A stretch of 64,000 nucleotides of DNA from Shigella phage CWP003: sequence record OL856099. One strand, given 5' to 3'. Below, piece after piece: positions 1-64,000 of this stretch (the first letter of the stretch is position 1; every line of letters starts with the position of its first letter). The position numbers were made by a program, and so were the translations under genes. The notes below the pieces were generated by a model, which saw only the letters and a program-made list of their open reading frames with translations, made no database searches and was not told the origin of the DNA.

Positions 1-327
1 AGGAATATGACGGTTGCTGTCATTATTTGGTTTAATAATGAGCATAAAAACGATTAGAAAGATGATGGCTGATATACTTAATTCAATCAGCGCGGCCTGA
101 GATATGGATTGATCTTCATGATACTGCTTTTGCATTTCTGCTTTCTTCTGAGCGCAAACTTCAGGCGATATATAATCGCCTTTTGAGTTGCCATAATAAA
201 TCTCGCCATTCTCAGAAATAAGTCTGCCGCAAATATCCGTTTCAGCCTTTGCGCTTGACATCATAATAACGGTGCCGATGATAGCCGCAATGGTCCAGAT
301 TAGCAGTTGCGATAAAGTGTTGTTCAT
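1..327 (-). CDS. Partial CDS (N-terminus in window, 3' end beyond window start); small membrane or secreted protein
   Basis: ATG at complement 327..325 preceded by AAAGAGG; open for 109 codons to the window edge by manual translation; hydrophobic N-terminal segment (LLIWTIAAIIGTVIMM) and a second hydrophobic stretch (AIIFLIVFMLII). Not in the ORF track because it has no stop in the window. Confidence 0.4.
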   Translation of the reverse strand, partial: MNNTLSQLLIWTIAAIIGTVIMMSSAKAETDICGRLISENGEIYYGNSKGDYISPEVCAQKKAEMQKQYHEDQSISQAALIELSISAIIFLIVFMLIIKPNNDSNRHIP

Positions 328-523
328 GATAACCTCTTTAAATTCCCTTCCCGATGTGGGAAGGGTGAATATTATTTTACGCGAAAGAATAAGCGCGTGC
401 CACACAGCGAGTCCCAACGGCCTTCACCATCCCATACCGACCCAATGCCAGCGGTGATTACACCAGCAGAATTGGCGGCATTGGCCCAGGCAAGTCGTTT
501 AAGCTTCCAACTGCACCAACGAT

Positions 524-787
524 TCACAGTTCGCCTCCAGACTTCAAAATTAATCCCGCATATATTATTGCCAGAGCTAAAGGCGCACCGTCGCCAGCCT
601 CTCTATTCTCTTTGATTTGAAGAGTATCTTTTAGGAATTGAAGTTGAACGTTAAACTCATTTTCGATTCCAAGCACAACAGCAAGTTCTTTTACAGAATC
701 TGCATATGCCTTGTCTAGCACTTCTTTTGGTAATGTTAAAGTCAATTCATTCGCCATTTTCTTTCCACTCCACAAATGTACTGCCAC
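524..787 (-). CDS. Hypothetical protein
   Basis: Track ORF; true start may be the internal Met (MANELT...). No recognised motif. Confidence 0.3.
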   Translation of the reverse strand: MAVHLWSGKKMANELTLTLPKEVLDKAYADSVKELAVVLGIENEFNVQLQFLKDTLQIKENREAGDGAPLALAIIYAGLILKSGGEL

Positions 788-968
788 TTGTTTCTCTATT
801 TAGCAGGTATCTGCCGCGCATTCCACGAAGGCTGAACTCAACCGTCGATGGATTAGATTTTGAAAGCCACATCACTTGACCGTCGAACGGTCCGCCAACG
901 CATGTGTATTTGGCCTTTGGCTCACTCCTTTTGGGCCGCTTTGCCCGCTCTTTGATTGATAGTCTCAT
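747..968 (-). CDS. Hypothetical protein
   Basis: Track ORF in a leftward tandem with neighbours. Confidence 0.3.
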   Translation of the reverse strand: MRLSIKERAKRPKRSEPKAKYTCVGGPFDGQVMWLSKSNPSTVEFSLRGMRGRYLLNRETSGSTFVEWKENGE

Positions 969-1183
969 CAGTCTTCACCTTGAGATTCAAGACAAGTAAG
1001 AACAAGCCACGTCATCGGAAGAATCAAAACCAGAGAAATAAGTGACCAAATGGACCAACACAAGATGACAGACTTGAATGTGTGAACGTCGCCAAACGCA
1101 GCAGTGAAACAAAATCCCATTACGAAAGCAATCGCTGTGGAGTGATTATCAATGGCTTTGATGGCGCGGTCGATGAGTTTCAT
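968..1183 (-). CDS. Small membrane protein (two predicted TM helices)
   Basis: Track ORF; hydrophobic stretches AIAFVMGFCFTAAF and LISLVLILPMTWLVL. Confidence 0.4.
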   Translation of the reverse strand: MKLIDRAIKAIDNHSTAIAFVMGFCFTAAFGDVHTFKSVILCWSIWSLISLVLILPMTWLVLTCLESQGED

Positions 1184-1331
1184 ATTACCTCCGGTTTTGA
1201 GTTAATATGATTATAATGCAGAATTTCAGAAAGGCAAACTTTTTGTGAATTTAAATTAAAAAAATGGCCAGAAATAATCTGGCCAAAAAGATCACCCTTT
1301 ATCCACTACTAAGCTGGAATCATAATTTTAC

Positions 1332-1361
1332 TTGATATAGCTGTCTCAAGCAAACTATAAT
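1332..1361 (+). promoter_or_regulatory. Sigma70-like promoter (TTGATA, 18 nt spacer, TATAAT) abutting the annotated terL ATG
   Basis: Read directly from sequence; the -10 ends 1 nt before ATG 1362. Confidence 0.3.
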
Positions 1362-2822
1362 ATGAATAAAATATTAACACATAATTGGAAAGTCATGTAC
1401 CAGTTGAATCCTGCTTTAAGAGAAGTCTGGAAGACGAAAGCGCGATACAAAGTCATATACGGCGGTCGTGCATCTTCCAAATCGCACGATGCCGCTGGTT
1501 TTGCTATTTATTTAGCGGCAAACTTCAAATTAAAATTCCTTTGCGTTCGACAATTCCAGAACAAGATTTCTGAATCAGTATATACGCTATTAAAAGATAA
1601 AATAGAGATTTCTGATTTTAAAGACGAGTTCAACTTATTAAAGAACTCTATCGAACACAAAAGAACAAAATCTGAATTTTTATTTTACGGTATCGCACGC
1701 AACGTTGACGAAATCAAATCAACAGAAGGTGTTGATGTTCTTTGGCTTGAAGAAGCGCATGCACTGACTGAAGAGCAATGGGACATTATTGAGCCGACAA
1801 TTCGTAAGGAAGGGTCCGAAATATGGATCATATTTAACCCTGATGAAGAGGCTGATTTCGTCTACCAGAACTTTGTCATGCGACCGCCGAAAAATGCCAT
1901 CGTTAAGAAGATTAACTGGCAGGACAATCCATTCTTGTCGCAAACAATGCTGGATGTTATCGCTGGCATGTATGAGCGCGACCCGAAAAAGGCAGAACAC
2001 GTTTATGGCGGAGTGCCGAAGACAGGCGGCGATAAGTCGGTCATCAACCGTGCATTCGTCAAAGCCGCGCTAAACCTCCACAAACACCCTACGCTGGGAT
2101 GGAGCTTGTCAGGGTCTAACCGTATAGGCTTCGACGTGGCGGACGACGGCGACGACTTAAACGCCACAGCATTTGTCACAGGCAACGTATTACGTGGCAT
2201 CAAGACATGGGAAGGTCTGGAAGATGAATTGCTTAAGTCCGCAAGCGGAGTCTGGAAAGACGCATTGACATTCGGCGCATCAATCACCTATGACGCCATC
2301 GGTGTTGGTGCATTTGCTGGTTCAAAATTTGATGAGCTTAATGAGTATGCAATCCATGAAAATCCAACATTCCCAAGAATCGAATTTAATGCGTTCAACG
2401 CGCAAGGTGCTGTTGATGATCCTGATGACGTTTTCCTTGAGTTACCACACGTTGAAATACTCAATAAAGACCATTTCGCAAACATAAAAGCGCAAAAATG
2501 GACTGAGATTGCCGAACGATTCAGAAAGACATATGAGTATGCGACAGGGCAGGCCGTATATCCGACTGATGAGTTGATTTCCATTGACACAGACGGCATC
2601 CCAGAACTTGGGATTCCTGCTTGGACTGCGGAAGAGATTGAGACGTTTCTTTTTGAGATGTCAGCGCCGCGCAAAGATACGTCTGTTCTTGGTAAGTTCA
2701 AAGTTGAATCGAAAAAAGATATGGCAAAGCGTGGAGTCAAATCGCCTAACAAAGCGGACGCAGCAATTATGGCATTGATGAAACCAATTGTTGCAGCATC
2801 CGGCTTCTTCTCTAACCTTTAA
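1362..2822 (+). CDS. terL: Terminase large subunit
   Basis: 486 aa; Walker A-like GGRASSKSHDA near the N-terminus, acidic ATPase-coupling region and C-terminal nuclease-like region typical of TerL; sits at the head of the structural module. Start may instead be Met12 (1395). Confidence 0.85.
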   Translation: MNKILTHNWKVMYQLNPALREVWKTKARYKVIYGGRASSKSHDAAGFAIYLAANFKLKFLCVRQFQNKISESVYTLLKDKIEISDFKDEFNLLKNSIEHKRTKSEFLFYGIARNVDEIKSTEGVDVLWLEEAHALTEEQWDIIEPTIRKEGSEIWIIFNPDEEADFVYQNFVMRPPKNAIVKKINWQDNPFLSQTMLDVIAGMYERDPKKAEHVYGGVPKTGGDKSVINRAFVKAALNLHKHPTLGWSLSGSNRIGFDVADDGDDLNATAFVTGNVLRGIKTWEGLEDELLKSASGVWKDALTFGASITYDAIGVGAFAGSKFDELNEYAIHENPTFPRIEFNAFNAQGAVDDPDDVFLELPHVEILNKDHFANIKAQKWTEIAERFRKTYEYATGQAVYPTDELISIDTDGIPELGIPAWTAEEIETFLFEMSAPRKDTSVLGKFKVESKKDMAKRGVKSPNKADAAIMALMKPIVAASGFFSNL

Positions 2823-2825
2823 CAA

Positions 2826-3065
2826 TTAAAGCATTCCGTGCTGAAGGTCGAGCTTTCTTGCGGCAAACGACCTGGCACGGAATCGCTTACCCGCCCTTAC
2901 TGCCTGTCGAATTTTCTTTTGCAAACACTTACGGTCAAAATCGTTGCGGTCGACGGCTTCGAGTAAATCGCGACGCAGTGCACCCAGTGTCGACTTTTCG
3001 GAGACTTCAACGCCCAGCGCGGCTGCAACATCTTTCAAAACATCGAGTTCGGTTAAAGTTCTCAT
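2826..3065 (-). CDS. Small basic protein with SAP/Rho-N-like helix motif
   Basis: 79 aa; LTELDVLKDVAAALGVEVSEKSTLGALRRDLL resembles SAP/Rho_N; lysine/arginine-rich C-terminus; overlaps the upstream gene by 4 nt. Confidence 0.45.
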   Translation of the reverse strand: MRTLTELDVLKDVAAALGVEVSEKSTLGALRRDLLEAVDRNDFDRKCLQKKIRQAVRAGKRFRARSFAARKLDLQHGML

Positions 3066-3478
3066 TTGATAATCCCCTTGATGTCCGATTCTGCCATAAA
3101 GATTGGAGTGCTGCCGCCAGGAACAATCGAGCGCGTGACCTTGTCAAACATATCGTTTTCTTCAACTTGAATACGATAAAATTTATTTTTGGATGAAGAT
3201 GGGCACAATCCCATAAATTTGCCGATGCCGCGAACGCATTCATCTTCAAAGTATACTGTTTCACCTTGAATGGAGTCGATGTCGTCTACTGGATAGACCT
3301 TGCGACCCAATAGCCACTCATCCAAAGTCGCCTGCAAGACGTTGCGCGCATCTAAAATCCACGGGTCAATAGTAGCACCTTCATATCGCGCAGCAGTGGC
3401 CTTTGCCAGTTCTTCATATTCGCATACGTTAACGACTTCGCCGTTGTGCAAGACGACAAATACAATTGTTGTGCTCAT
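3062..3478 (-). CDS. Hypothetical protein, first gene of a convergent two-gene cassette
   Basis: 138 aa track ORF on the opposite strand to flanking terL and portal; no recognised motif. Confidence 0.45.
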   Translation of the reverse strand: MSTTIVFVVLHNGEVVNVCEYEELAKATAARYEGATIDPWILDARNVLQATLDEWLLGRKVYPVDDIDSIQGETVYFEDECVRGIGKFMGLCPSSSKNKFYRIQVEENDMFDKVTRSIVPGGSTPIFMAESDIKGIIK

Positions 3479-3573
3479 TTCAATCTCCTTTCGTTTGGTT
3501 AACTAAAATATAACTCAAAATGATACAAAAGCAAAATATTTTATGAACTATTTATGATCACCATACATATCAT

Positions 3574-3602
3574 TTGCTTACAAACACATGAATATTTATA
3601 AT
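3574..3602 (+). promoter_or_regulatory. Sigma70-like promoter upstream of portal (TTGCTT, 17 nt spacer, TATAAT)
   Basis: Read from sequence in the divergent intergenic region 3479-3640. Confidence 0.4.
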
Positions 3603-3607
3603 ATAGA

Positions 3608-6016
3608 TTGATTCCCTTTCACTGTCAGGTGGCGTTAACAATGAAAATTCTTGGCATAAAACTCTGGGAGAAGACGCAACCAGAAGCCGAACCAGCGGAG
3701 ATGCCGCCAGGCGACCCATTGGCACCGTTTGAACGCCTTGAAAGGCGCGGCAGCGGTCAACGCTGGGAAAAGACTGAAAGCAATCGACCGACCTTTAAAA
3801 CGGTTGATGACTTCCCTTTATATGAGCCTGATATTAATGGCGATGGTGTTGCAATCATAAAAGGTCGTTCAGTCGATTCCGCAACAGTATCCAAAAAGGT
3901 TATGGATAATGCCTTAAAGAACATCAGTTCAGAAGGGCAAGTAAACCCATACACAGTACCTATTCAACTTCAAAACTGGTATTTGTCACAGTCATTCATC
4001 GGCTATCAAGCTTGTGCCATCATCGCACAGCATTGGCTGGTGAACAAGGCGTGTTCCATGGTAGGCCGCGATGCGGTCCGTAAAGGTTGGGAAGTAAAAT
4101 CCAGTTCTGAGTCAGAATTGTCAGTACAGGCAAGCGAACGCCTAAAGCAAATTGATAAAGAATTTAATATCAAAGAGCACTTAGTTGAAGCCGAACGATT
4201 CAAAAATATTTTTGGTATCCGCGTCATCATATTTGATGTGCGTAGCGATGACCCAGAATATTACAGCAAGCCTTTTAACATTGATGGCGTGACAAAGGGG
4301 TCTTATAAGGGAATCATTCAGGTTGACCCTTATTGGATGATGCCGTTTCTGACGTCTGAAAACACAGCAGACCCTGCATCACAGCACTTCTATGACCCAG
4401 AATATTGGGTAATCAGCGGACAACGTTATCATCGCAGCCACCTCATAATCTTGCGCAACGATGAGCCAGCTGATATTCTCAAGCCGACTTATATTTACGG
4501 CGGCATTCCTCTGACTCAGCAGATTTATGAACGCATCTATGCCGCTGAACGTACCGCCAACGAAGCGCCATTGCTGGCGATGTCCAAGCGTACAACGACG
4601 CTGCGGACCGACGTTGACAAGGCTATTGCCAATGAGCGGTCTTTTGCAGAACGTCTGATGATGTGGATCAAGTACCGCGACAACTATGCAGTCAAAGTGC
4701 TTGGCCAAAAAGAAGAGATGGACCAGTTTGACATCAACTTGTCAGACTTCGACAGCATCATCATGAACCAGTACCAGCTTGTGGCCGCAATCGCAAAAGT
4801 TCCGTCGACCAAACTGCTTGGGACTTCGCCAAAAGGCTTTAACGCCACTGGTGAATTCGAGATGGTCAGCTATCACGAAGAGTTGGAAACGTGCCAGCAG
4901 CATGACCTGACAAAAATTCTCGACCGCCATTACAAAATCCTTCTCAAATCAGAAGGGGTGAATGTCGATGTTAAGGTTGCATGGGAACCAGTTGGCTCAC
5001 TTACTGCTACTCAACTTGCAGAAATCAATGATAAGCGAGCCAACACTGGCAAAACTCTTATTGATGCTGGCGTCATTTCTCCTGATGAAGAGCGCGACCG
5101 CATCAAAGACGACAAAAACAGCGGCTACAACCGTCTGCCGGAAGACGCAGCAGAAGAAACCCCAGGGATGTCTCCAGAGAATATGGCATTGCTTGGCAAG
5201 TCTGCTGGTGAAGTCCTGCAAGGTAAGGCCGATATTGAACAGGCGAAAGCTGATGTCGTTAAGATGGGCGGCCAGTTCTATAGCGAAACAGGTATTATGC
5301 CAGAGGGTGCCGCGCGTGGTGAGTTGGCGGAAAACCCTGACAAAGCGCCTGTCGAAATCAACATGGACGATACCGATGATGAATCAAGCCATCAGGTTGA
5401 TGTCCTAACGCAGTTGAAAGAAGGGCTGGAGGGTATTGCGGATTACTACCTGAAAGAAGGTCAGGATGTGGATTTTGACCCTCAAAAAGATTCACGGTCG
5501 GTGCAACCGTCTACCCTTCCAAGCGTTAAAGGACACGTCGTCAACTTACGCCACAACGTGGGTAAAATGGACGCAGCATCATTACCTAAGATGAAGTTGC
5601 ACGGAATGATTCTTGGCATTGAGAATCCGCGAAACAGCATTCGTAGAGGAAACAGCCTTGACGGTGAATGGGCCGTGAAGATGCCGCACCACTACGGATT
5701 CATCAAGGGCACCAAGGGCGCAGACGGTGATGAAGTCGACTGTTTTGTGGGTCCAAATCTTAAGTCGCCGAAAGTCTTTATCGTGAACCAAAACGATAAC
5801 TACTCTGGCGAGTTTGATGAACACAAGTGTATGCTTGGATTCGATTCAGCAGAAGAAGCGAAAGAAGCTTATCAAGCATCATTTGGTAACGGTTGGAACG
5901 GATTCGACTCAATCCACGAATTAGATGTGAACTCATTCAAGGAGTGGTTGAAGGGTGATTGCTCTCAAGCATACGGAGCACTCAATAATCCTACTAATTC
6001 ACCGAAGCAAGGTTGA
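3608..6016 (+). CDS. Portal protein
   Basis: About 790-800 aa; position directly after terL and before a Mu F-like gene. Track start is TTG; a likelier start is ATG 3641 (MKILG) with AGGTGG upstream. Confidence 0.7.
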   Translation: MIPFHCQVALTMKILGIKLWEKTQPEAEPAEMPPGDPLAPFERLERRGSGQRWEKTESNRPTFKTVDDFPLYEPDINGDGVAIIKGRSVDSATVSKKVMDNALKNISSEGQVNPYTVPIQLQNWYLSQSFIGYQACAIIAQHWLVNKACSMVGRDAVRKGWEVKSSSESELSVQASERLKQIDKEFNIKEHLVEAERFKNIFGIRVIIFDVRSDDPEYYSKPFNIDGVTKGSYKGIIQVDPYWMMPFLTSENTADPASQHFYDPEYWVISGQRYHRSHLIILRNDEPADILKPTYIYGGIPLTQQIYERIYAAERTANEAPLLAMSKRTTTLRTDVDKAIANERSFAERLMMWIKYRDNYAVKVLGQKEEMDQFDINLSDFDSIIMNQYQLVAAIAKVPSTKLLGTSPKGFNATGEFEMVSYHEELETCQQHDLTKILDRHYKILLKSEGVNVDVKVAWEPVGSLTATQLAEINDKRANTGKTLIDAGVISPDEERDRIKDDKNSGYNRLPEDAAEETPGMSPENMALLGKSAGEVLQGKADIEQAKADVVKMGGQFYSETGIMPEGAARGELAENPDKAPVEINMDDTDDESSHQVDVLTQLKEGLEGIADYYLKEGQDVDFDPQKDSRSVQPSTLPSVKGHVVNLRHNVGKMDAASLPKMKLHGMILGIENPRNSIRRGNSLDGEWAVKMPHHYGFIKGTKGADGDEVDCFVGPNLKSPKVFIVNQNDNYSGEFDEHKCMLGFDSAEEAKEAYQASFGNGWNGFDSIHELDVNSFKEWLKGDCSQAYGALNNPTNSPKQG

Positions 6017-7797: not shown

Positions 7798-7807
7798 AGA
7801 GGAAGTT

Positions 7808-7945
7808 ATGCAAAAGATTATTCAGTCACGTTACGTTAAAGTGCGAAATATTAATTGCAACTCTTTGCTTTCTTGGAAATGGGCTGTTTACGACTCGATG
7901 CTGATTGGCGTTTTAGTTGCTGGAGTGCTTTTTAATATTCACTGA
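7808..7945 (+). CDS. Possible small membrane ORF (45 aa)
   Basis: ATG with AGAGGAAG upstream; hydrophobic stretch LIGVLVAGVLF; below the track length cut-off. Confidence 0.2.
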   Translation: MQKIIQSRYVKVRNINCNSLLSWKWAVYDSMLIGVLVAGVLFNIH

Positions 7946-7952
7946 ATCGCCT

Positions 7953-7966
7953 GGCAATGGATTGCC
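7953..7966. other. Perfect palindrome GGCAATGGATTGCC
   Basis: Seen in sequence downstream of the 6877..7797 operon; possible terminator stem or protein-binding site. Confidence 0.35.
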
Positions 7967-7988
7967 GCAGGATTTTACGCGTATAATG

Positions 7989-8256
7989 ACGTATCATCCG
8001 TATCAAGTAAGTAGTTGTTTTCAAAAGAATCTTACGGATGATACGGATGATACGCGTTGCCGCGATACTTTATAGGAATTCAAATAAATTAATTTAAAAT
8101 TATATATCTAATTTAATTTTATTTTTTTATAAACTCTTATATATGAAAAGTATCCGTATCATCCGTATCATCCGTAGCACACCAGTGATAGCGCGGCTTA
8201 TACACTGATACGGATAAAAATACGCCTCATTTTATCCGTATCATCCGTATCACACT
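7989..8256. repeat. Iteron locus 1: tandem and inverted 9-mers ATCCGTATC/GATACGGAT flanking an AT-rich core
   Basis: Seen directly: TATCATCCGTATCA (7991), CTTACGGATGATACGGATGATACG (8031), AT-rich 8080-8150, GTATCCGTATCATCCGTATCATCCGTAGC (8151), TGATACGGATAAAAATACG (8206), TTATCCGTATCATCCGTATCAC (8232). Confidence 0.65.
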
Positions 8257-8309
8257 AATTAAGGCGCGGCTATATCGGTTGTTATACATATTCAAACCAT
8301 AATTATTGT

Positions 8310-8338
8310 TTGCCTAAGTTTTTTTCATTAGATATAAT
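8310..8338 (+). promoter_or_regulatory. Sigma70-like promoter (TTGCCT, 17 nt spacer, TATAAT) for the scaffold/capsid operon
   Basis: Read from sequence about 25 nt upstream of ATG 8362. Confidence 0.45.
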
Positions 8339-8361
8339 ACACAATACTTATTTGAGGGTGG

Positions 8362-9780
8362 ATGCGAATGCAAACGGCACGCGAAATTGACAAAAATGGA
8401 TTCTTGACGATTGTGGGTTGTCCCATTTCGTCATTTGGCATTTTTGATTATTCTGCAGGTCAGGTTGGACTTGATGGTGATCCGAATCGCATCGTAAAAG
8501 TTTATCGCCCAGAGTCAGCGGTGAAAGACCCCGAAGCGATAGATTCATTCAAAAATATCCCTTTCATCGACAATCACGAAATGCTTTCTGGATTCGAAGG
8601 TGATGAGGATAACACAGCACCCGAAGAGTATGGCGTTGATGGCGTTCTAACTGGCAATGTTTATTATGACAAGCCATGGATGCGCGGCGACCTTAAAGTT
8701 TTTAGCCGTCGTCTGAAGAAAGCCATCGATTCTGGAAAGGTTGACTTGTCTTTGGGCTATGACTGTGAATTCATCATACAGTCTGGAGAGTTTGACGGGC
8801 AGCCGTATGAAGTGGTACAGACAACTCTTCGCGGCAACCACATTGCTCTCGTGGACGTTGGTCGAGTACCAGGTGCACGGGTGCTGGATGGTCGTTGCTT
8901 TGACCATCTTTGTTTGACGACTGTAACACCATCCAACGAGGATTTAGACATGCCAAAACCGTTAAAAGGTAAAGCGCGTGATAATGCTGTTGAACAGCTG
9001 AAATCACTGATCCCTGCGCTCGAACAATTTCTGAATGAAGAGAGCACCGAAGCTGCTCATCAGGACGAAGTTGAAGTGAAAGCAGAAGAGAAGGATTCAA
9101 CCGAAGAACGTGAAGAAGTGATGGTTGATCCAGAAGTTAAAGCAGAAGCTGAAGAGACTCCAGAAGGTGAAGAGAAGTTTGAAGTTGAATCTGAATCTCA
9201 CGCTGGCGGCGAGCTTCCGCAACTGATCAGCCAAATCGAAGCACTTATTGCAAAACTGAAAGGTGGCGCGGTAGGTGATGAAGAAGAAGTTGAAGCCGAA
9301 GTCAAAGACGAAGAAGTTGAAGTCAAGGCTGAAGATGTATCACCTTGCGACAAAGCTGAAGATGTGGTTAGCGGCCTGCAAAACAGCAACGTAAAGGGGG
9401 CTTCGGTCGAAAAAGATGACAAACCGACAAAAGCGGCGAAAGCGTCGCCAGGTCCAGCAAAAGGGGAACACTCAATGGCATCTGATTCAGCAGTTGCTGC
9501 TTTCTACGCTGATTCTGCTCGTAAGAATAGCCTCTACCAGCGCCTGTCTAAAGTTGTTGGTGCCTTTGATCATGCAACTATGGACTCCAAGTCCGTAGCG
9601 AAATATGGCGCTAAAAAGTTAGGCTTGAAGTGCGTTGATGGTGCTGAGTTTGACGTGGTGGATAATTATCTGCGCGGCGTTGAACACGGTCAAAAACAGC
9701 GTGTAGTCGCAAAACAAAAGGCCGCTGCGGATTCTGCAGCAACTGACGAAGCATTTGAAGCTTGGTTGAAAGGGGAATAA
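8362..9780 (+). CDS. Head scaffolding protein, possibly fused to an N-terminal protease-like domain
   Basis: 472 aa; globular N-terminal domain of about 200 aa followed by a highly acidic Glu/Lys/Ala-rich helical region; position between the F-like gene and the capsid gene. Confidence 0.55.
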   Translation: MRMQTAREIDKNGFLTIVGCPISSFGIFDYSAGQVGLDGDPNRIVKVYRPESAVKDPEAIDSFKNIPFIDNHEMLSGFEGDEDNTAPEEYGVDGVLTGNVYYDKPWMRGDLKVFSRRLKKAIDSGKVDLSLGYDCEFIIQSGEFDGQPYEVVQTTLRGNHIALVDVGRVPGARVLDGRCFDHLCLTTVTPSNEDLDMPKPLKGKARDNAVEQLKSLIPALEQFLNEESTEAAHQDEVEVKAEEKDSTEEREEVMVDPEVKAEAEETPEGEEKFEVESESHAGGELPQLISQIEALIAKLKGGAVGDEEEVEAEVKDEEVEVKAEDVSPCDKAEDVVSGLQNSNVKGASVEKDDKPTKAAKASPGPAKGEHSMASDSAVAAFYADSARKNSLYQRLSKVVGAFDHATMDSKSVAKYGAKKLGLKCVDGAEFDVVDNYLRGVEHGQKQRVVAKQKAAADSAATDEAFEAWLKGE

Positions 9781-60035: not shown

Positions 60036-60300
60036 AGAACACTGTATTGCGTGTTTTGAATAATGGGATGTGTACAATTGGTCGCTTTACGCGGCCTTTT
60101 GTTGTTGTTTGGGTCGTGTTTCGTGATTGAATAATTATGAGGCGATGTTTTATTTATTAATTGTGCGGAAATATTTAGAAATATATATAGACAGGATTGT
60201 TAATATTTTAATAGTGTATGGCTATCGGTCCGTGGTGTTTGTTAGGAATTATCTATGGATTGAAATTTTAGTGTCGTGAAACGTGGTGTTTGAACATATT

Positions 60301-60660
60301 TGATACGCGTAAAATACGGCTAAAAATTAAGCGTATCATGGCTGCAGGCCGCGCCGTTCCTGGATTCCTCTTTTCCAAATTGGTACACCCTTACGTCATG
60401 ATACGTCATGGTTTTTTATCCGTATCAGTGTACAGCCCTTGCCGCGCCTGGCTTGTACATTAATCTTACGGATGATACGGATAAAACTGGGCATCGTTAT
60501 ATATATAATTTGAAAAATTAATTAACTCCATTTTGAATTAATTTAAATTAATTTTTTTCTACATCCTCATACTTATGTTAATTTATATATAACGTATTAT
60601 CCGTAAGATATAAGTAAAAACAAAGACTTGCGGCAATACGGATGATACGTCATGATACGC
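60301..60660. repeat. Iteron locus 2: GATACGGAT/ATCCGTATC and GATACGTCATG repeats around an AT-rich core; shares a 21-mer with locus 1
   Basis: Seen directly: ACGTCATGATACGTCATGG, TTTTATCCGTATCAG, AATCTTACGGATGATACGGAT (identical to 8029-8049), AT-rich 60490-60590, TTATCCGTAAGAT, CAATACGGATGATACGTCATGATACGC. Confidence 0.65.
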
Positions 60661-60806
60661 TTCAACCAGCCAGTAGCGGCTAAGTCATTGATTTGCATAA
60701 CAAGCGGCGAAAGGGATGGACTTCTTTTATACGTATCAAACAGTACACCACGCACCACGGTCCGATATTCATTCAGCACTATGATTTATGTACGTTTACA
60801 GCCAAT

Positions 60807-60835
60807 TTGAACATCAATCTGCACTTGAATATAAT
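60807..60835 (+). promoter_or_regulatory. Sigma70-like promoter (TTGAAC, 17 nt spacer, TATAAT)
   Basis: Read from sequence; followed by two tandem TTGCACTAT motifs overlapping the RBS and ATG of the downstream gene. Confidence 0.45.
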
Positions 60836-60887
60836 GTTCAATCATTATATAATTCACACTATTAATTTGCACTATGGGATTTGCACT

Positions 60888-61361
60888 ATGAGTCAAGATT
60901 ATGTAGCAATGCCTGAAGACTTTGAAGACCCGCGATTTGCAGAGCATAATCAGGCATTATTCGATGAGTTCATCGACCTTGTTATTCAGGGCCATGACAT
61001 GCGCGCAGCTTTTGCACTAGTATTTGGCATGGAGGTTGCGACCGATAACTACACTGGCCAGCGAATCCTGTGCACTCAGCGCAATCCGTACTACAAGATG
61101 CGCTACAAAAAGCGTATGGAAGAGATGCCATTGAAGGAATTGTGGAGCGTAAAGAGTTCCATTCACAATTTAGTGAAGCTTGTGCGTGATCCAGAAGTCG
61201 CAGCATCAGCCAAGCTTAATGCCATTCGTGAACTGAATATCATCTACGGCATTACGATGATTGATGAAAACGGCAATAGTAAAATGGGCCGTTCCATGGA
61301 TGATTTCTACAAGGATTTTGGAGAGGCGGCCAAAGAGGGTGAGCAATTCTCCCGCCACTAG
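60888..61361 (+). CDS. Small helical DNA-binding-like protein (possible regulator or small terminase-like protein)
   Basis: 157 aa from ATG 60888 in frame with track ORF 60693..61361; central stretch IDLVIQGHDMRAAFALVFGMEVATDNYTGQRIL reads as an HTH-like segment. Functional call speculative. Confidence 0.4.
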   Translation: MSQDYVAMPEDFEDPRFAEHNQALFDEFIDLVIQGHDMRAAFALVFGMEVATDNYTGQRILCTQRNPYYKMRYKKRMEEMPLKELWSVKSSIHNLVKLVRDPEVAASAKLNAIRELNIIYGITMIDENGNSKMGRSMDDFYKDFGEAAKEGEQFSRH

Positions 61362-61380
61362 CCAATTTGCACTATAAAAC

Positions 61381-61414
61381 GGCCCTAGAACACATTTTCT
61401 CCACTTCTAGGGCC
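61381..61414. other. Perfect 10-bp hairpin (GGCCCTAGAA...TTCTAGGGCC, 14-nt loop) just after a motif copy
   Basis: Seen in sequence; no U-run follows on the plus strand. Confidence 0.4.
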
Positions 61415-61475
61415 ATCGGTAATACGACGGGGAAGGCTGCAACCATAAACGCGTTAGAAAGTGTATTATTATAAG

Positions 61476-61739
61476 TCATCTTTTAGTCACTTTACGTAAC
61501 AATTTACGACCTTCCGCCGTCCAGTCGAACGACTCCACCAGCAAATTTGCACTATAACCTAAGACGATGCGCCCTTTCTCGTTATCTACCCGCCAACAAG
61601 TCTCAAATAGCATTCGATTTGCACTATTAACTATCGCCGCAACGCGCGTTGGGTAAGCGCAATTTGCACTATGGTCATAAAGGGATAAGGTGCGACCACT
61701 TCCGATGGACAACGTAGCGATGAGAATAAGCGTATTCAT
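61476..61739 (-). CDS. Possible small ORF overlapping three motif copies (each read as Ser-Ala-Asn)
   Basis: Track ORF; GGTGG RBS before the ATG; coding status uncertain because the repeated motif dominates. Confidence 0.3.
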   Translation of the reverse strand: MNTLILIATLSIGSGRTLSLYDHSANCAYPTRVAAIVNSANRMLFETCWRVDNEKGRIVLGYSANLLVESFDWTAEGRKLLRKVTKR

Positions 61740-61789
61740 AAGCCACCAATTTGCACTATGAAAAGCGACCCCGAAGGGCCGCCATTCGA

Positions 61790-62416
61790 TTAGATAATCT
61801 GGAAGGTGTAGGACTTGTTGCCGAACTCGAAGTTCAAGCGTCCCGCTTCTTTAAGCTTCATGCGGAAGCGAATGTGCTTGCTATCCGGTAAGCCCAGCGC
61901 GGCGAACGCTACGCGGACTGATTTGAACTCGCCTACACCCTCGACCATAACGGCGTTACGGGTGAGACGCTTTTGCGCCACTTCCTTGTTATCCCAACTT
62001 TTTGCAATACCTTCGCTATTCGAACGGCGATGGGAAGGAGTTCCATTTTGCACTACGCAACTTGCACTATCGTTTAGGCCGCTTTTAACGAAGGCTTCAT
62101 ACTCTTCGTCGGTCATCGCGTCGAGTTCTTCCTGGGTCGGCTCGGCCTTTTTGACGACCGCACGCGCCTTATGCGTTTTTACATCGCTGGACACTTCCTC
62201 GCGCGGCTTCGCGTCTGGGATGGGCGATTCGTTGGACGGCTCATCGAGCGCGTTTAAGGACTCGATTAACGCGATTACGCGAGTCTCGGCGGTCCGGCGG
62301 TCCGCAAACTTCTTAATCGGTTTTGAGCCGGAATTTGCATTATAGAATGCAACGAGGTCGGCGGTCTTAGTTGCGATAACGTCGCCGCTAGTAGAAAAGC
62401 GATTTAAGCTAACCAT
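61790..62416 (-). CDS. Hypothetical protein (basic/acidic mixed), CpG-rich codon usage
   Basis: 208 aa track ORF; TAGGAG RBS 7 nt before the ATG; contains motif copies at 62048, 62062 and 62335. Confidence 0.5.
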   Translation of the reverse strand: MVSLNRFSTSGDVIATKTADLVAFYNANSGSKPIKKFADRRTAETRVIALIESLNALDEPSNESPIPDAKPREEVSSDVKTHKARAVVKKAEPTQEELDAMTDEEYEAFVKSGLNDSASCVVQNGTPSHRRSNSEGIAKSWDNKEVAQKRLTRNAVMVEGVGEFKSVRVAFAALGLPDSKHIRFRMKLKEAGRLNFEFGNKSYTFQII

Positions 62417-62496
62417 AATAAACTCCTATTTGTTAGGGCGCTAGGCGCGAAAGAATTTTATTAAAGCGCCGCGCACGACGCTCTAAAAATCCTCTC

Positions 62497-62811
62497 TTAC
62501 TCTTCGTCGTCTTCGATTAATTCGAGGGCGAAGGCGTAAGCTTTGCTATCGTAATTAACTAAAACGGCGAGTTCGAACTCGTTAATAAACGCCGTTTTAC
62601 CGCATAAATTTAATTCCGCATCGACTTCGAAGAATCCGTTTTCGTCGCGCTCTAAGCGAGAAGCAGCGAGTTGCTCGATTACCGTCGCGTCGTTAATTTC
62701 TTCGCCTAAGCGAACGCCGGAGAATTTCGCGAGAATTTCGCCGTAAGTAAGCGTAACGCCCTGGACTTCGGCGGTTGCGTTTTCGAGGGTAAAGCGGGTA
62801 ACGATAGCCAT
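62497..62811 (-). CDS. Small acidic protein
   Basis: 104 aa; TAGGAG RBS; acidic C-terminus (ELIEDDEE). Confidence 0.5.
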   Translation of the reverse strand: MAIVTRFTLENATAEVQGVTLTYGEILAKFSGVRLGEEINDATVIEQLAASRLERDENGFFEVDAELNLCGKTAFINEFELAVLVNYDSKAYAFALELIEDDEE

Positions 62812-62951
62812 AACAAACTCCTAGTTGGGAGAGGCGTTAACGACCTATTCGTTAACTCATCCCGTCCCGATATGAGTACATTATAATATAGTGTAGAAAA
62901 AAGTAAAGCACTTTTTCGATAAAAATGCGATAAATTATTTTATCTTTTTTC

Positions 62952-62979
62952 TTTACTTCTTCGTACACTCGCGTATACT
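62952..62979 (+). promoter_or_regulatory. Promoter A (TTTACT, 16 nt spacer, TATACT) followed by conserved box GTTTATATCGAGACGGG
   Basis: Read from sequence; paralogous to promoter B. Confidence 0.45.
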
Positions 62980-63035
62980 TGTTTATATCGAGACGGGCGA
63001 TGGCCCTTTCTTCTACTAGCATCGGGAGCTTTATT

Positions 63036-63338
63036 ATGACTACTTTAATCTCTTCCATCCTTACTTACGACGAAGACCGCTTAACCGTTCGCTCTCTTAT
63101 CGCCGCCGTTAACGCGGAACTCGAAACTAGCATTATTAAAGCGCGCGCCGTCGCCTTCGTCGGCCTTTCCTTCGACGATATTAAGTATGCAGAGTATAGC
63201 GCCATTCGCGTCGTTACTACCGACGATAACGCCGTTACCCTTATCGAGACGGTTACGCCTCGCGGCGAAGCGTTAATTATCGTCGAGTATATCGACGTAG
63301 AAGGCGATAAAGCTTATAAATATTTTATCGCAGAATAA
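63036..63338 (+). CDS. Small hypothetical protein
   Basis: 100 aa from ATG 63036 in frame with track ORF 62979..63338; CpG-rich codons. Confidence 0.45.
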   Translation: MTTLISSILTYDEDRLTVRSLIAAVNAELETSIIKARAVAFVGLSFDDIKYAEYSAIRVVTTDDNAVTLIETVTPRGEALIIVEYIDVEGDKAYKYFIAE

Positions 63339-63350
63339 CGAAAAAAGTGC

Positions 63351-63379
63351 TTTACTTCTTCGTACACTAAGACTATAAT
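63351..63379 (+). promoter_or_regulatory. Promoter B (TTTACT, 17 nt spacer, TATAAT) followed by conserved box GTTTTATATCGAGAGGGG and a 5'-UTR hairpin
   Basis: Read from sequence; hairpin GGTAGCGA-ATAGG-TCGCTACC at 63412-63432. Confidence 0.45.
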
Positions 63380-63446
63380 GTTTTATATCGAGAGGGGATG
63401 AGGTAGCGAATAGGTCGCTACCCTCCCGACTAACTAGGAGAATATT

Positions 63447-63737
63447 ATGATTACTTTAGCCGCTATCCGTTCCGCTCGCGTCGAAACTTCCGAAAACTCT
63501 AACGTATTTGGCGAAAAACTTAAAAACGTTTATCTCTTTAACGTAGATGCGACTATCGAAGAGCTTCATAGTCCTATCGATTTTAGCGAATTTACGGAAC
63601 TCGAAGAGGAAGATATTACTACCTTCCGCGTTACTATCGAAGGTAAGGTTTATTTTGCTACGGAGTTCGGCGGCGAATATCTCGCGGTATCCGAAGGCGA
63701 AGGCCGTTACTCTTTCTTTAAAATCGTCTCCTTATAA
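63447..63737 (+). CDS. Small acidic hypothetical protein
   Basis: 96 aa track ORF with AGGAGAA RBS. Confidence 0.45.
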   Translation: MITLAAIRSARVETSENSNVFGEKLKNVYLFNVDATIEELHSPIDFSEFTELEEEDITTFRVTIEGKVYFATEFGGEYLAVSEGEGRYSFFKIVSL

Positions 63738-63901
63738 TACCCTTCCGTTACTAATAGGCCGCGCTTAGTCGCGGCTTTTCTTCGTCCCTATCTCGATGCG
63801 CTTCTCCGCGAAAACTCCTTTATCCTTCCCTTCTTCGTCGCATAATCTTCGTCGAGATGCGCCTTAGTTCGCATAACAGGTATTACGTTAAATGGAGAAC
63901 A

Positions 63902-63975
63902 TCGCGTAAGTCCTTGTTTTATATAGACACCTATATCGGACCGTTAGGGAGGGTCGCGTAAGTCGTTGTTTTATA
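63902..63975. repeat. Two direct 22-bp repeats TCGCGTAAGTC(C/G)TTGTTTTATA
   Basis: Seen directly at 63902-63923 and 63954-63975; contain the same GTTTTATA core as the boxes downstream of promoters A and B. Confidence 0.5.
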
Positions 63976-64000
63976 AAGGCGCAAAACTTTCCCTTCGTTC

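Follow-up and report, generated by a model that had tools for sequence, protein, structure and literature searches.

Why does a stretch of some two kilobases in a phage genome differ so sharply in dinucleotide composition from the DNA around it? The question is posed by positions 61790–63740 of a 64,000-nucleotide window (the whole stretch of DNA analysed here) from Shigella phage CWP003 (record OL856099), which a sequence-only reading had described as a CpG-rich module, horizontally acquired or specially regulated. Our analysis places this stretch wholly inside the direct terminal repeat (DTR) of the phage and identifies its main signal as the depletion of CA/TG, of which the CpG richness is a secondary by-product. 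The compositional shift itself is real: across 61790–64000 the CpG observed/expected ratio is 2.00, where windows of equal size in the first 60 kb give 1.10±0.09 and at most 1.33 (z = 10), and the dinucleotide distance delta* is 0.245 against 0.048±0.019 elsewhere. However, when symmetrised rho values for 62420–64000 are set against those elsewhere, the dominant change is in CA/TG (0.25 vs 1.18), accompanied by rises in CG (2.16 vs 1.10) and TA (1.25 vs 0.65). CA/TG is thus down 4–5-fold, while the other dinucleotides and the GC content are unchanged. The excess of both CG and TA is what replacement of CA/TG predicts, since each is a single-transition neighbour of CA/TG. All eight trinucleotides that contain CA/TG are depleted, TCA/TGA and CAG/CTG the most and ATG/CAT and GCA/TGC the least.

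The tract takes in most of four genes, which encode a basic protein of 208 amino acids (aa; 61790–62416, minus strand) and three small acidic proteins of 104 aa (62497–62811, minus strand), 100 aa (63036–63338, plus strand) and 96 aa (63447–63737, plus strand); the four-gene module thus stands, with the correction that its first two genes lie on the minus strand. In every 400-bp window of 62201–64000, rho(CA/TG) lies between 0.12 and 0.38, against a background of 1.19±0.12 with a minimum of 0.82 over the remaining 60 kb, and the depletion as a whole comes to 0.25–0.36 vs 1.18. We delimit the CA/TG-poor island at 62100–64000 (rho(CA/TG) 0.12–0.44), with a core from about 62200. It begins with a sharp compositional break at about 62.1–62.2 kb, within the 208-aa gene, after a weak gradient from 61.4 kb, and runs past 63740 to the end of the window, so neither of the limits first drawn for the module holds. 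The island is also free of GATC (0 observed vs 4.9–6.6 expected), the sole further word clearly avoided in such islands; pooled over the islands of the three phage genera described below, GATC occurs once against 13–20 expected. Outside the islands the observed/expected counts are 92/247, 29/39 and 6/20 (0.30–0.74), a milder, genome-wide depletion below Markov expectation.

The position of the island within the genome follows from its close relatives. The window DNA belongs to Wifcevirus, a genus of E. coli myophages, and from 50 kb to the window end it matches the genomes of WFH, WFC, Bas98–101, Mansfield, ECML-117 and others at 92–99% identity. In WFH, WFC and Mansfield, whose records start at the physical left end, window position 61302 falls at position 775. 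With genome termini taken from PhageTerm predictions and record ends, the DTR spans 1..3673 in Mansfield (PhageTerm) and 3784 bp in WFC (comparison of both record ends). The alignment to these genomes together with their DTR lengths puts the start of the repeat at about 60528 and its end about 230–310 bp beyond the window, so that 60528–64000 is the in-window part of a repeat of about 3.7 kb. In the relatives the island extends about 170 bp past the point where our window ends and stops about 150–220 bp short of the physical terminus. The outer, non-depleted part of the DTR is marked by a homologue of the small terminase subunit gene (terS; 60888–61361, plus strand; Mansfield annotation and phrog_4783), which is of normal composition (CA/TG per codon 0.08/0.17/0.24).

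The same kind of island is present in Serratia phage MyoSmar (Myosmarvirus) and Pantoea phage Kyle (Kylevirus). MyoSmar shares only about 17% genome-wide nucleotide identity with ECML-117 (MyoSmar genome announcement). Within the 3559-bp DTR of MyoSmar, rho(CA/TG) is 0.14–0.29 from about 150 to about 2000 and normal beyond, and within that of Kyle (3603 bp, from both record ends) it is 0.20–0.57 from about 1600 to about 3450. When the genomes are oriented with the small-terminase gene on the plus strand and counted from the right physical end, the three genera show the same profile: 14–16 CA+TG per 100 bp in the first 200 bp, 0–8 in the next ~1.8–2.0 kb, and 10–22 thereafter. The island sequences themselves have diverged across genera; beyond the terS and 208-aa homologues, the sole tblastn match is a marginal one of g96 in Kyle (E = 0.07). 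The 208-aa protein, in turn, belongs to a family common to Pseudomonas phage PB1 (gp80), MyoSmar (gp001), Kyle (gp4) and Xanthomonas phage FoX7, and this backbone gene changes composition with its place. As the first island gene in MyoSmar it has 15 CA/TG in 167 codons, compared with 65 in 204 codons for the syntenic PB1 gp80, which adjoins a terminase-like gene; in Wifcevirus and Kyle the gene lies across the island edge and has an intermediate CA/TG content, our copy being CA/TG-poor in its 5' half only. No island was found in PB1 (52–65.7 kb scanned) or FoX7 (56–61 kb scanned). Because three genera share the position of the tract, and because the backbone gene is recoded only inside it, in the enterobacterial branch the composition goes with distance from the genome end and not with gene ancestry.

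This comparison bears most directly on the proposal, made in the sequence-only reading, that the island was acquired horizontally and keeps the composition of an exotic donor. The sharp compositional break is what such an event would leave, and the small proteins are indeed orphans limited to their genus or clade. However, a foreign origin does not account for the same composition at the same terminal position in three genera or for a vertically inherited backbone gene that gains this composition by position; moreover, every divergent allele of the island genes is CA/TG-poor and older polymorphisms have been purged of CA/TG, as detailed below. We also know of no organism with a genome-wide CA/TG rho near 0.25. 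As a cause of the composition, we find horizontal acquisition scarcely credible.

The rule is imposed on the DNA itself and not at the level of codons or proteins. In genes of either orientation the sense strand is as poor in CA as in TG, and the depletion includes the non-coding region of the divergent promoters as well as the non-coding tail 3' of the terminator, where 366 aligned nucleotides hold 18 CA/TG (0.049 per nucleotide vs ~0.13–0.15). Counted over the 596 codons of six alleles of the three small genes, CA/TG occurs 0.012, 0.020 and 0.034 times per codon at phases 1–2, 2–3 and 3–1, compared with 0.078, 0.150 and 0.218 in 29 long open reading frames of the same phage, so that each phase is depleted 6–7.5-fold. 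At codon junctions we count 20 CA/TG, where shuffling of codon order within genes yields 129.6±8.4. In the small genes CTG, TTG, TCA, CCA and ACA are unused as codons and GTG is nearly so, and Met, Trp, Cys, His and Gln jointly make up about 1.4% of the residues of the encoded proteins against a background of 10.2%; the DNA rule overrides protein composition.

These counts weigh on the idea that selection works at the level of RNA or translation, sparing highly expressed early transcripts from internal NTG starts, from toxin RNase sites such as ACA or from dependence on particular tRNAs. The loss of TG does remove start codons in every frame, and strong promoters and Shine–Dalgarno (SD) sites suggest very high expression. 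Yet the sense strand has lost CA as fully as TG, whichever way the gene points, and the depletion reaches non-transcribed, non-coding DNA past the terminator. Explanations from tRNAs or amino acids fail because codon junctions are as depleted as codon-internal positions. We therefore regard selection on RNA or translation as very unlikely. As a candidate in its own right, tRNA supply was rejected: there are no tRNA genes in the window, and the island avoids CTG and CAG, which are preferred codons in E. coli.

Polymorphism shows how the depletion is maintained. In an alignment of 13 Wifcevirus genomes, with changes polarised by the majority allele, the promoters and 5' untranslated regions (UTRs) are almost invariant and the coding regions allelic, and every divergent allele and paralogue of the small genes is CA/TG-poor. 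The island has 205 minor-allele changes, of which 65 give rise to CA/TG, close to the 69 that the mutation spectrum predicts, and 14 abolish it. New CA/TG account for 26 of 99 singletons (34% expected) but for only 24 of 256 older variants (Fisher P = 1e-4), and in deep allelic differences CA/TG is found on either allele in 33 of 204 cases, again against 34% expected (P = 1e-8). New CA/TG mutations thus arise near the neutral rate and seldom persist, which means that long-term selection maintains the depletion.

The variant frequency spectrum is that of many weakly selected sites. It speaks against a bias of mutation linked to the terminal repeat, whether a process like the repeat-induced point mutation (RIP) of fungi or error-prone copying of the repeat at packaging. 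Such a bias would fit a tract that lies within duplicated sequence, and the loss of CpA/TpG with a gain of TpA resembles the signature that RIP leaves in duplicated sequence. RIP, in contrast, works through mutation, reduces GC and brings no rise in CpG, whereas the island has an unchanged GC content and a doubled CpG. In addition, mutational input runs against the pattern, recent changes creating CA/TG far more often than destroying it, and only about 2 kb of the 3.6–3.8-kb repeat is affected, the terS part being normal. To our knowledge no RIP-like mechanism exists in bacteria or phages, and we judge a mutational origin highly improbable.

What, then, does the island encode, and how would it be read? 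The sequence-only reading had described twin paralogous promoters; both are recovered by consensus scan, but a third copy on the minus strand had been missed. The resulting set comprises P_L (TTTACT-N16-TATAAT, minus strand, 62907 to 62880), P_R1 (TTTACT-N16-TATACT, plus strand, 62952–62979) and P_R2 (TTTACT-N17-TATAAT, plus strand, 63351–63379), three paralogous, near-identical promoters predicted to be strong from the sigma70 consensus, which stand back to back and in tandem, match that consensus at 9–10 of 12 positions (10 of 12 for P_L) and are invariant in the 13 genomes. P_R1 is predicted to read the 100-aa gene and P_R2 the 96-aa gene, ending at a strong intrinsic terminator at 63756–63787 (plus strand; an 8-bp stem, 6 of its pairs GC, with a T tail; annotated in WFH, WFC and Mansfield). 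Since the 104-aa and 208-aa genes have no detected terminator between them, P_L probably reads the two as one transcript. TTTACT-N17-TATAAT promoters recur in the Kyle island (4 copies) and at the first MyoSmar gene; a search of IMG/VR with the promoter word matched Wifcevirus contigs only.

The transcripts of these promoters begin with a related A/T-rich box, the conserved element after the -10 that the sequence-only reading had pointed out, followed by a hairpin. The 8-bp 5'UTR hairpin seen in that reading is also confirmed: in the P_R2 transcript (63402–63422, plus strand) it has the form GGUAGCGA-AUAGG-UCGCUACC, with a folding energy of -21.3 kcal/mol (z = -2.7), and the leftward transcript carries a counterpart, GTTAACGA-AUAGG-UCGUUAAC, at 62836–62856 (minus strand). 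The top of the hairpin, CGA-AUAGG-UCG, is invariant in P_R2, P_L and one MyoSmar hairpin, and the lower stems of the three show compensatory changes at 5 of 8 pairs. Rfam 15 gave 0 matches at E<=1 in 60400–64000, hairpin included. The hairpin could be a stabiliser of the 5' end, a processing site or the target of a regulator. Of the four genes said to share a TAGGAG ribosome-binding site, three do so with the spacing TAGGAG-N6-ATG, namely the 208-aa gene (62423–62428, minus strand; TAGGAG-TTTATT-ATG), the 104-aa gene (62818–62823, minus strand) and the 96-aa gene (63435–63440, plus strand), and the 100-aa gene has GGGAG instead (63024–63028). The window holds seven TAGGAG sites, and a start codon follows only the three in the island. 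Beyond the terminator lies the CA/TG-poor non-coding tail (63788–64000), nearly invariant in the 13 genomes and marked by a direct repeat, TCGCGTAAGTCNTTGTTTTATA, at 63902–63923 and 63954–63975. This repeat is similar to the box downstream of the -10 in the three promoters and retains its own TG amid an otherwise TG-free tract.

Against these invariant promoters and UTRs, the small acidic proteins are the most variable genes of the region. The 104-aa protein (isoelectric point, pI, 4.1; tail ...IEDDEE) occupies an allelic slot that in the 13 genomes holds either the 104-aa form or a 94-aa paralogue or is deleted; the 100-aa protein (pI 4.4) is allelic in its middle part and the 96-aa protein (pI 4.4) in its C-terminal two thirds, with two divergent forms of each. 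Together with the 94-aa allele the three form one paralogous family of pI 4.1–4.4. Word-indexed searches with single sequences and an all-paralogue profile found no homologues beyond Wifcevirus contigs; pairwise comparison gave weak relatives of the 104-aa protein and its family in Kyle gp6 (E=1e-3) and MyoSmar gp003 (2e-6). None of the three proteins matches Pfam or PHROGs, profile searches against the Protein Data Bank (PDB) were empty or insignificant with nothing below E=0.07, and the AlphaFold2 model of the 96-aa protein is poor (predicted local distance difference test score 64), its BFVD search returning its own entry only. Measured against DNA-mimic anti-restriction proteins of the Ocr or ArdA type, the small proteins have 96–104 residues and a pI of 4.1–4.4, and they are probably expressed early. 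In ECML-117, SP13 and Eco4M-7 an extra 69-aa gene follows the 96-aa gene (alignment columns 2396–2623); it has several Met codons and appears by eye less CA/TG-depleted than its neighbours.

The 208-aa protein has two helical or alpha/beta domains joined by a disordered linker and is probably nucleic-acid binding. It lies within a large uncharacterised family with 829 cluster representatives, and its sole family match in Pfam and PHROGs is phrog_4730, of unknown function. Serratia phages also carry a second paralogue outside the DTR, in MyoSmar (MN062189, 65029–65661) and MTx (NC_048759, 6489–7121).

Setting the location, composition, DNA-level constraint, conservation across three genera and regulatory anatomy of the island side by side, we propose, as roughly an even bet, that it is an immediate-early leader kept free of a DNA word that is read by the host or by the phage itself. 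The cassette, about 0.2 to about 2 kb from one physical genome end, would be read by the host sigma70 RNA polymerase and would be the first DNA exposed in the cell, ahead of any phage protein. Because it would be exposed before phage proteins exist, the leader would have to be invisible to the DNA-reading activity; the remaining genome could escape that reader later, shielded by functions encoded in the island. Long-term selection would strip CpA/TpG and GATC from the leader and mutation would substitute the transition neighbours CG and TA, and it is because CA/TG is replaced by CG and TA that the tract looks CpG-rich. The logic would be that of T5 first-step-transfer DNA and of the T7 leading end, the architecture paralleling the T5 region and, in part, that of T7. 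We suggest that the small acidic proteins act as anti-defence or host-takeover factors. Context and analogy support the earlier idea of a specially regulated module with such a role, through the DTR location, the three promoters, the near-consensus SD sites, the terminator, the variable acidic proteins and the restriction–modification (RM) resistance of the group; its timing and protein function are putative.

That the islands avoid GATC more strongly than the genomes as a whole suggests that the agent which reads the word may be a host activity. GATC belongs to the Dam/MutH biology of Enterobacterales, and in the regions examined islands occur in phages of Enterobacterales alone, with none in the Pseudomonas and Xanthomonas relatives. 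With more hesitation, we entertain the wider proposal that the PB1-like phages of enterobacteria (Wifcevirus, Kylevirus and Myosmarvirus) all keep about 2 kb of stealth DNA behind one genome end and that an undescribed activity reads CpA/TpG on incoming double-stranded DNA. The reader could be an Enterobacterales-wide host nuclease or defence system, or the phage's own enzyme for destroying host DNA.

This last possibility leads to a different explanation, self-immunity in a two-step infection, in which a CA/TG-requiring nuclease, encoded by the phage or delivered with the virion, degrades the host DNA at a time when the leader alone has entered, the leader survives for want of its target and the rest of the genome follows once the nuclease has been switched off. 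The closest parallel, for the leader proposal as for this one, is the first-step-transfer (FST) or pre-early region of phage T5, which likewise has early genes within a long direct terminal repeat, operons running in opposite directions from host-type promoters at the centre, a repeat-rich non-coding region that closes the cassette and a repeat compositionally distinct from the rest of the genome. The Wifcevirus repeat is shorter (3.7 kb vs 10 kb), contains the small-terminase gene and has no homologues of T5 A1, A2 or dmp in its island (Pfam, PHROGs). T5 FST DNA is reportedly unprotected, the rest of the genome being protected by a pre-early function (Davison 2015 review; 'ris' mutants). Self-immunity would explain an island set by distance from the terminus (about 0.2–2 kb) in three genera, and the non-coding repeat-rich stretch after the cassette recalls the injection stop signal that follows the T5 pre-early genes; the fast replication of Wifceviruses would also profit from quick breakdown of host DNA. 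However, no nuclease domain was found in the island proteins (Pfam, PHROGs), of which the small ones lack conservation across genera; the left terminal repeat of T5 shows no CA/TG loss, and the additional avoidance of GATC suggests a host-specific word, not a phage nuclease. We consider self-immunity unlikely, though the strongest of the contrary accounts.

T5 was also considered, and rejected, as a general precedent for CA/TG loss, as CA/TG in its repeat is 0.93 vs 0.99. In a scan of T5 positions 1–30000, CpG and GpC are 1.34 and 1.58 in the left terminal repeat vs 0.79 and 1.07 over the 20 kb that follow; the composition switches at the repeat edge, and AG/CT and GA/TC are lower inside the repeat.

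Two other phages offer partial parallels to an immediate-early leader. The leading end of T7 (promoters A1–A3 and gene 0.3, Ocr) shares with the island strong host-polymerase promoters less than about 1.5 kb from the end, some of them directed inward, small acidic early proteins and a phage insensitive to restriction. We know of no dinucleotide that T7 lacks. The host-takeover module of the Bacillus phage SPO1 has many small early genes with strong promoters and ribosome-binding sites in the terminal redundancy; it differs in host and promoter type and has no sequence relation to Wifcevirus.

Several observations count against the idea of a leader kept free of a DNA word. Unlike the T7 arrangement, two Wifcevirus island genes point to the terminus, and no Ocr- or ArdA-like sequence or fold appears among the small proteins (Pfam, PDB profile, BFVD and the low-confidence model). 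T5 FST DNA is compositionally distinct yet not CA/TG-poor. We know of no E. coli nuclease, restriction or defence system that reads bare CA/TG, and to purge a single dinucleotide would do away with no more than about half of the possible restriction specificities, for which the proteins would pay heavily. Sites for EcoKI, EcoAI-like enzymes, EcoRI and EcoRV are absent from the 3.5-kb in-window part of the DTR, where 1.6 are expected in all, which is not significant. Finally, the early timing, first entry, two-step transfer, protein function and selective agent are elements that we infer.

The restriction phenotypes of the group fit the leader proposal and provide the setting for the other readings. 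Wifceviruses resist EcoKI, EcoCFT_I, EcoRI, EcoRV and EcoCFT_II without a known protection mechanism, EcoP1I being the sole RM system reported to restrict them, with very high sensitivity (published phenotypes); their replication is reported as very fast. Bas98 gives 36 EcoRI site counts when both orientations are counted. EcoP1I sites (AGACC/GGTCT, both orientations) occur at 60926, 62363 and 63074 in the DTR part of the window, and the EcoP15I word CAGCAG is found 0 times in the DTR vs 3.8 expected. Avoidance of restriction sites and counterselection of GATC are established in enterobacteriophages (McClelland 1985; Deschavanne & Radman 1991; Rusinov et al. 2018). As there, selection in the island acts on DNA words and not on proteins, and GATC is under-represented; the known cases, in contrast, concern specific 4–8-bp sites genome-wide, whereas here a 2-bp step is avoided over a 2-kb tract to the point of reshaping amino-acid usage.

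Resistance without a known mechanism also gives some weight to another explanation, in which a base modification of T or A at CA/TG in virion DNA blocks restriction and the early region, which must stay unmodified for the host polymerase to transcribe it from the incoming DNA, has lost the target step. The strand-symmetric dinucleotide pattern would suit a short modification motif. However, we found no modification enzymes in the neighbourhood examined, the annotated genomes list none, and the presumably early plus-strand genes at 47–60 kb are not depleted, so that a modification-free zone appears distinctly unlikely. One specific candidate, thymidine hypermodification by a cluster of thymidylate synthase, kinase and reductase, was rejected, as the synthase is ThyX and the kinase is of the PNKP type.

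The DTR and its hypothetical genes are already annotated in public records. Our literature search found no account of a loss of CA/TG from the terminal repeats of phages or from Wifcevirus, nor of the third promoter, the covarying hairpin or the conservation of the tract across genera. What is new is that a single dinucleotide has been purged from a defined 2-kb tract, nearly eliminating five amino acids from small proteins, at a fixed distance from the terminus in three genera. Should a DNA-reading activity lie behind the purge, it has so far gone undescribed, and the island offers direct access to the reader; the tract would in that case serve as a natural reporter for a new class of DNA recognition, of very low specificity, in phage–host conflict and would explain how the fast-replicating, RM-resistant Wifceviruses survive the first minute of infection. 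For phage engineering, the island marks a region where synonymous changes are not neutral and offers compact, strong early promoters and UTRs.

Further features mark the edges of the repeat. The last ~200 bp between island and terminus (WFC right end, Kyle 3304–3603, MyoSmar 1–300) are G+T-rich and TG-rich on the 3'-ending strand, with TG:CA counts of 15:8 in WFC, 19:3 in Kyle and 17:2 in MyoSmar, and AATCATTAGCCTTC(G/T)AATT is common to WFC and Kyle; this stretch is possibly a terminase or end-processing signal, or a Chi-like sequence. At the outer edge, near 60528, lies AT-rich non-coding DNA (60100–60700) with repeated (ATG)ATACG(T) words. A Chi sequence stands at 61535 on the minus strand (CCACCAGC on the plus strand), about 1 kb from the left genome end, in an orientation that suits RecBCD entering from that end. 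A motif of the AATTTGCACTAT type has 13 matches in the window, a number never reached in shuffled sequence, and 11 of them, all on the plus strand, cluster at 60866–62343, from just 5' of the small-terminase ATG, where two copies abut, into the 208-aa gene; in relatives, related AATTTGCAGTACACT motifs occur at or past the inner DTR edge. These motifs could be binding sites or phage-specific promoters.

Elsewhere in the window, CpG is also raised at about 7800–8400 (observed/expected ~2.0) and at about 30700 (~1.6), with raised TpA and mildly reduced CA/TG (0.83–0.87); the first of these stretches corresponds to the non-coding gap ahead of the head maturation protease gene in Bas99.

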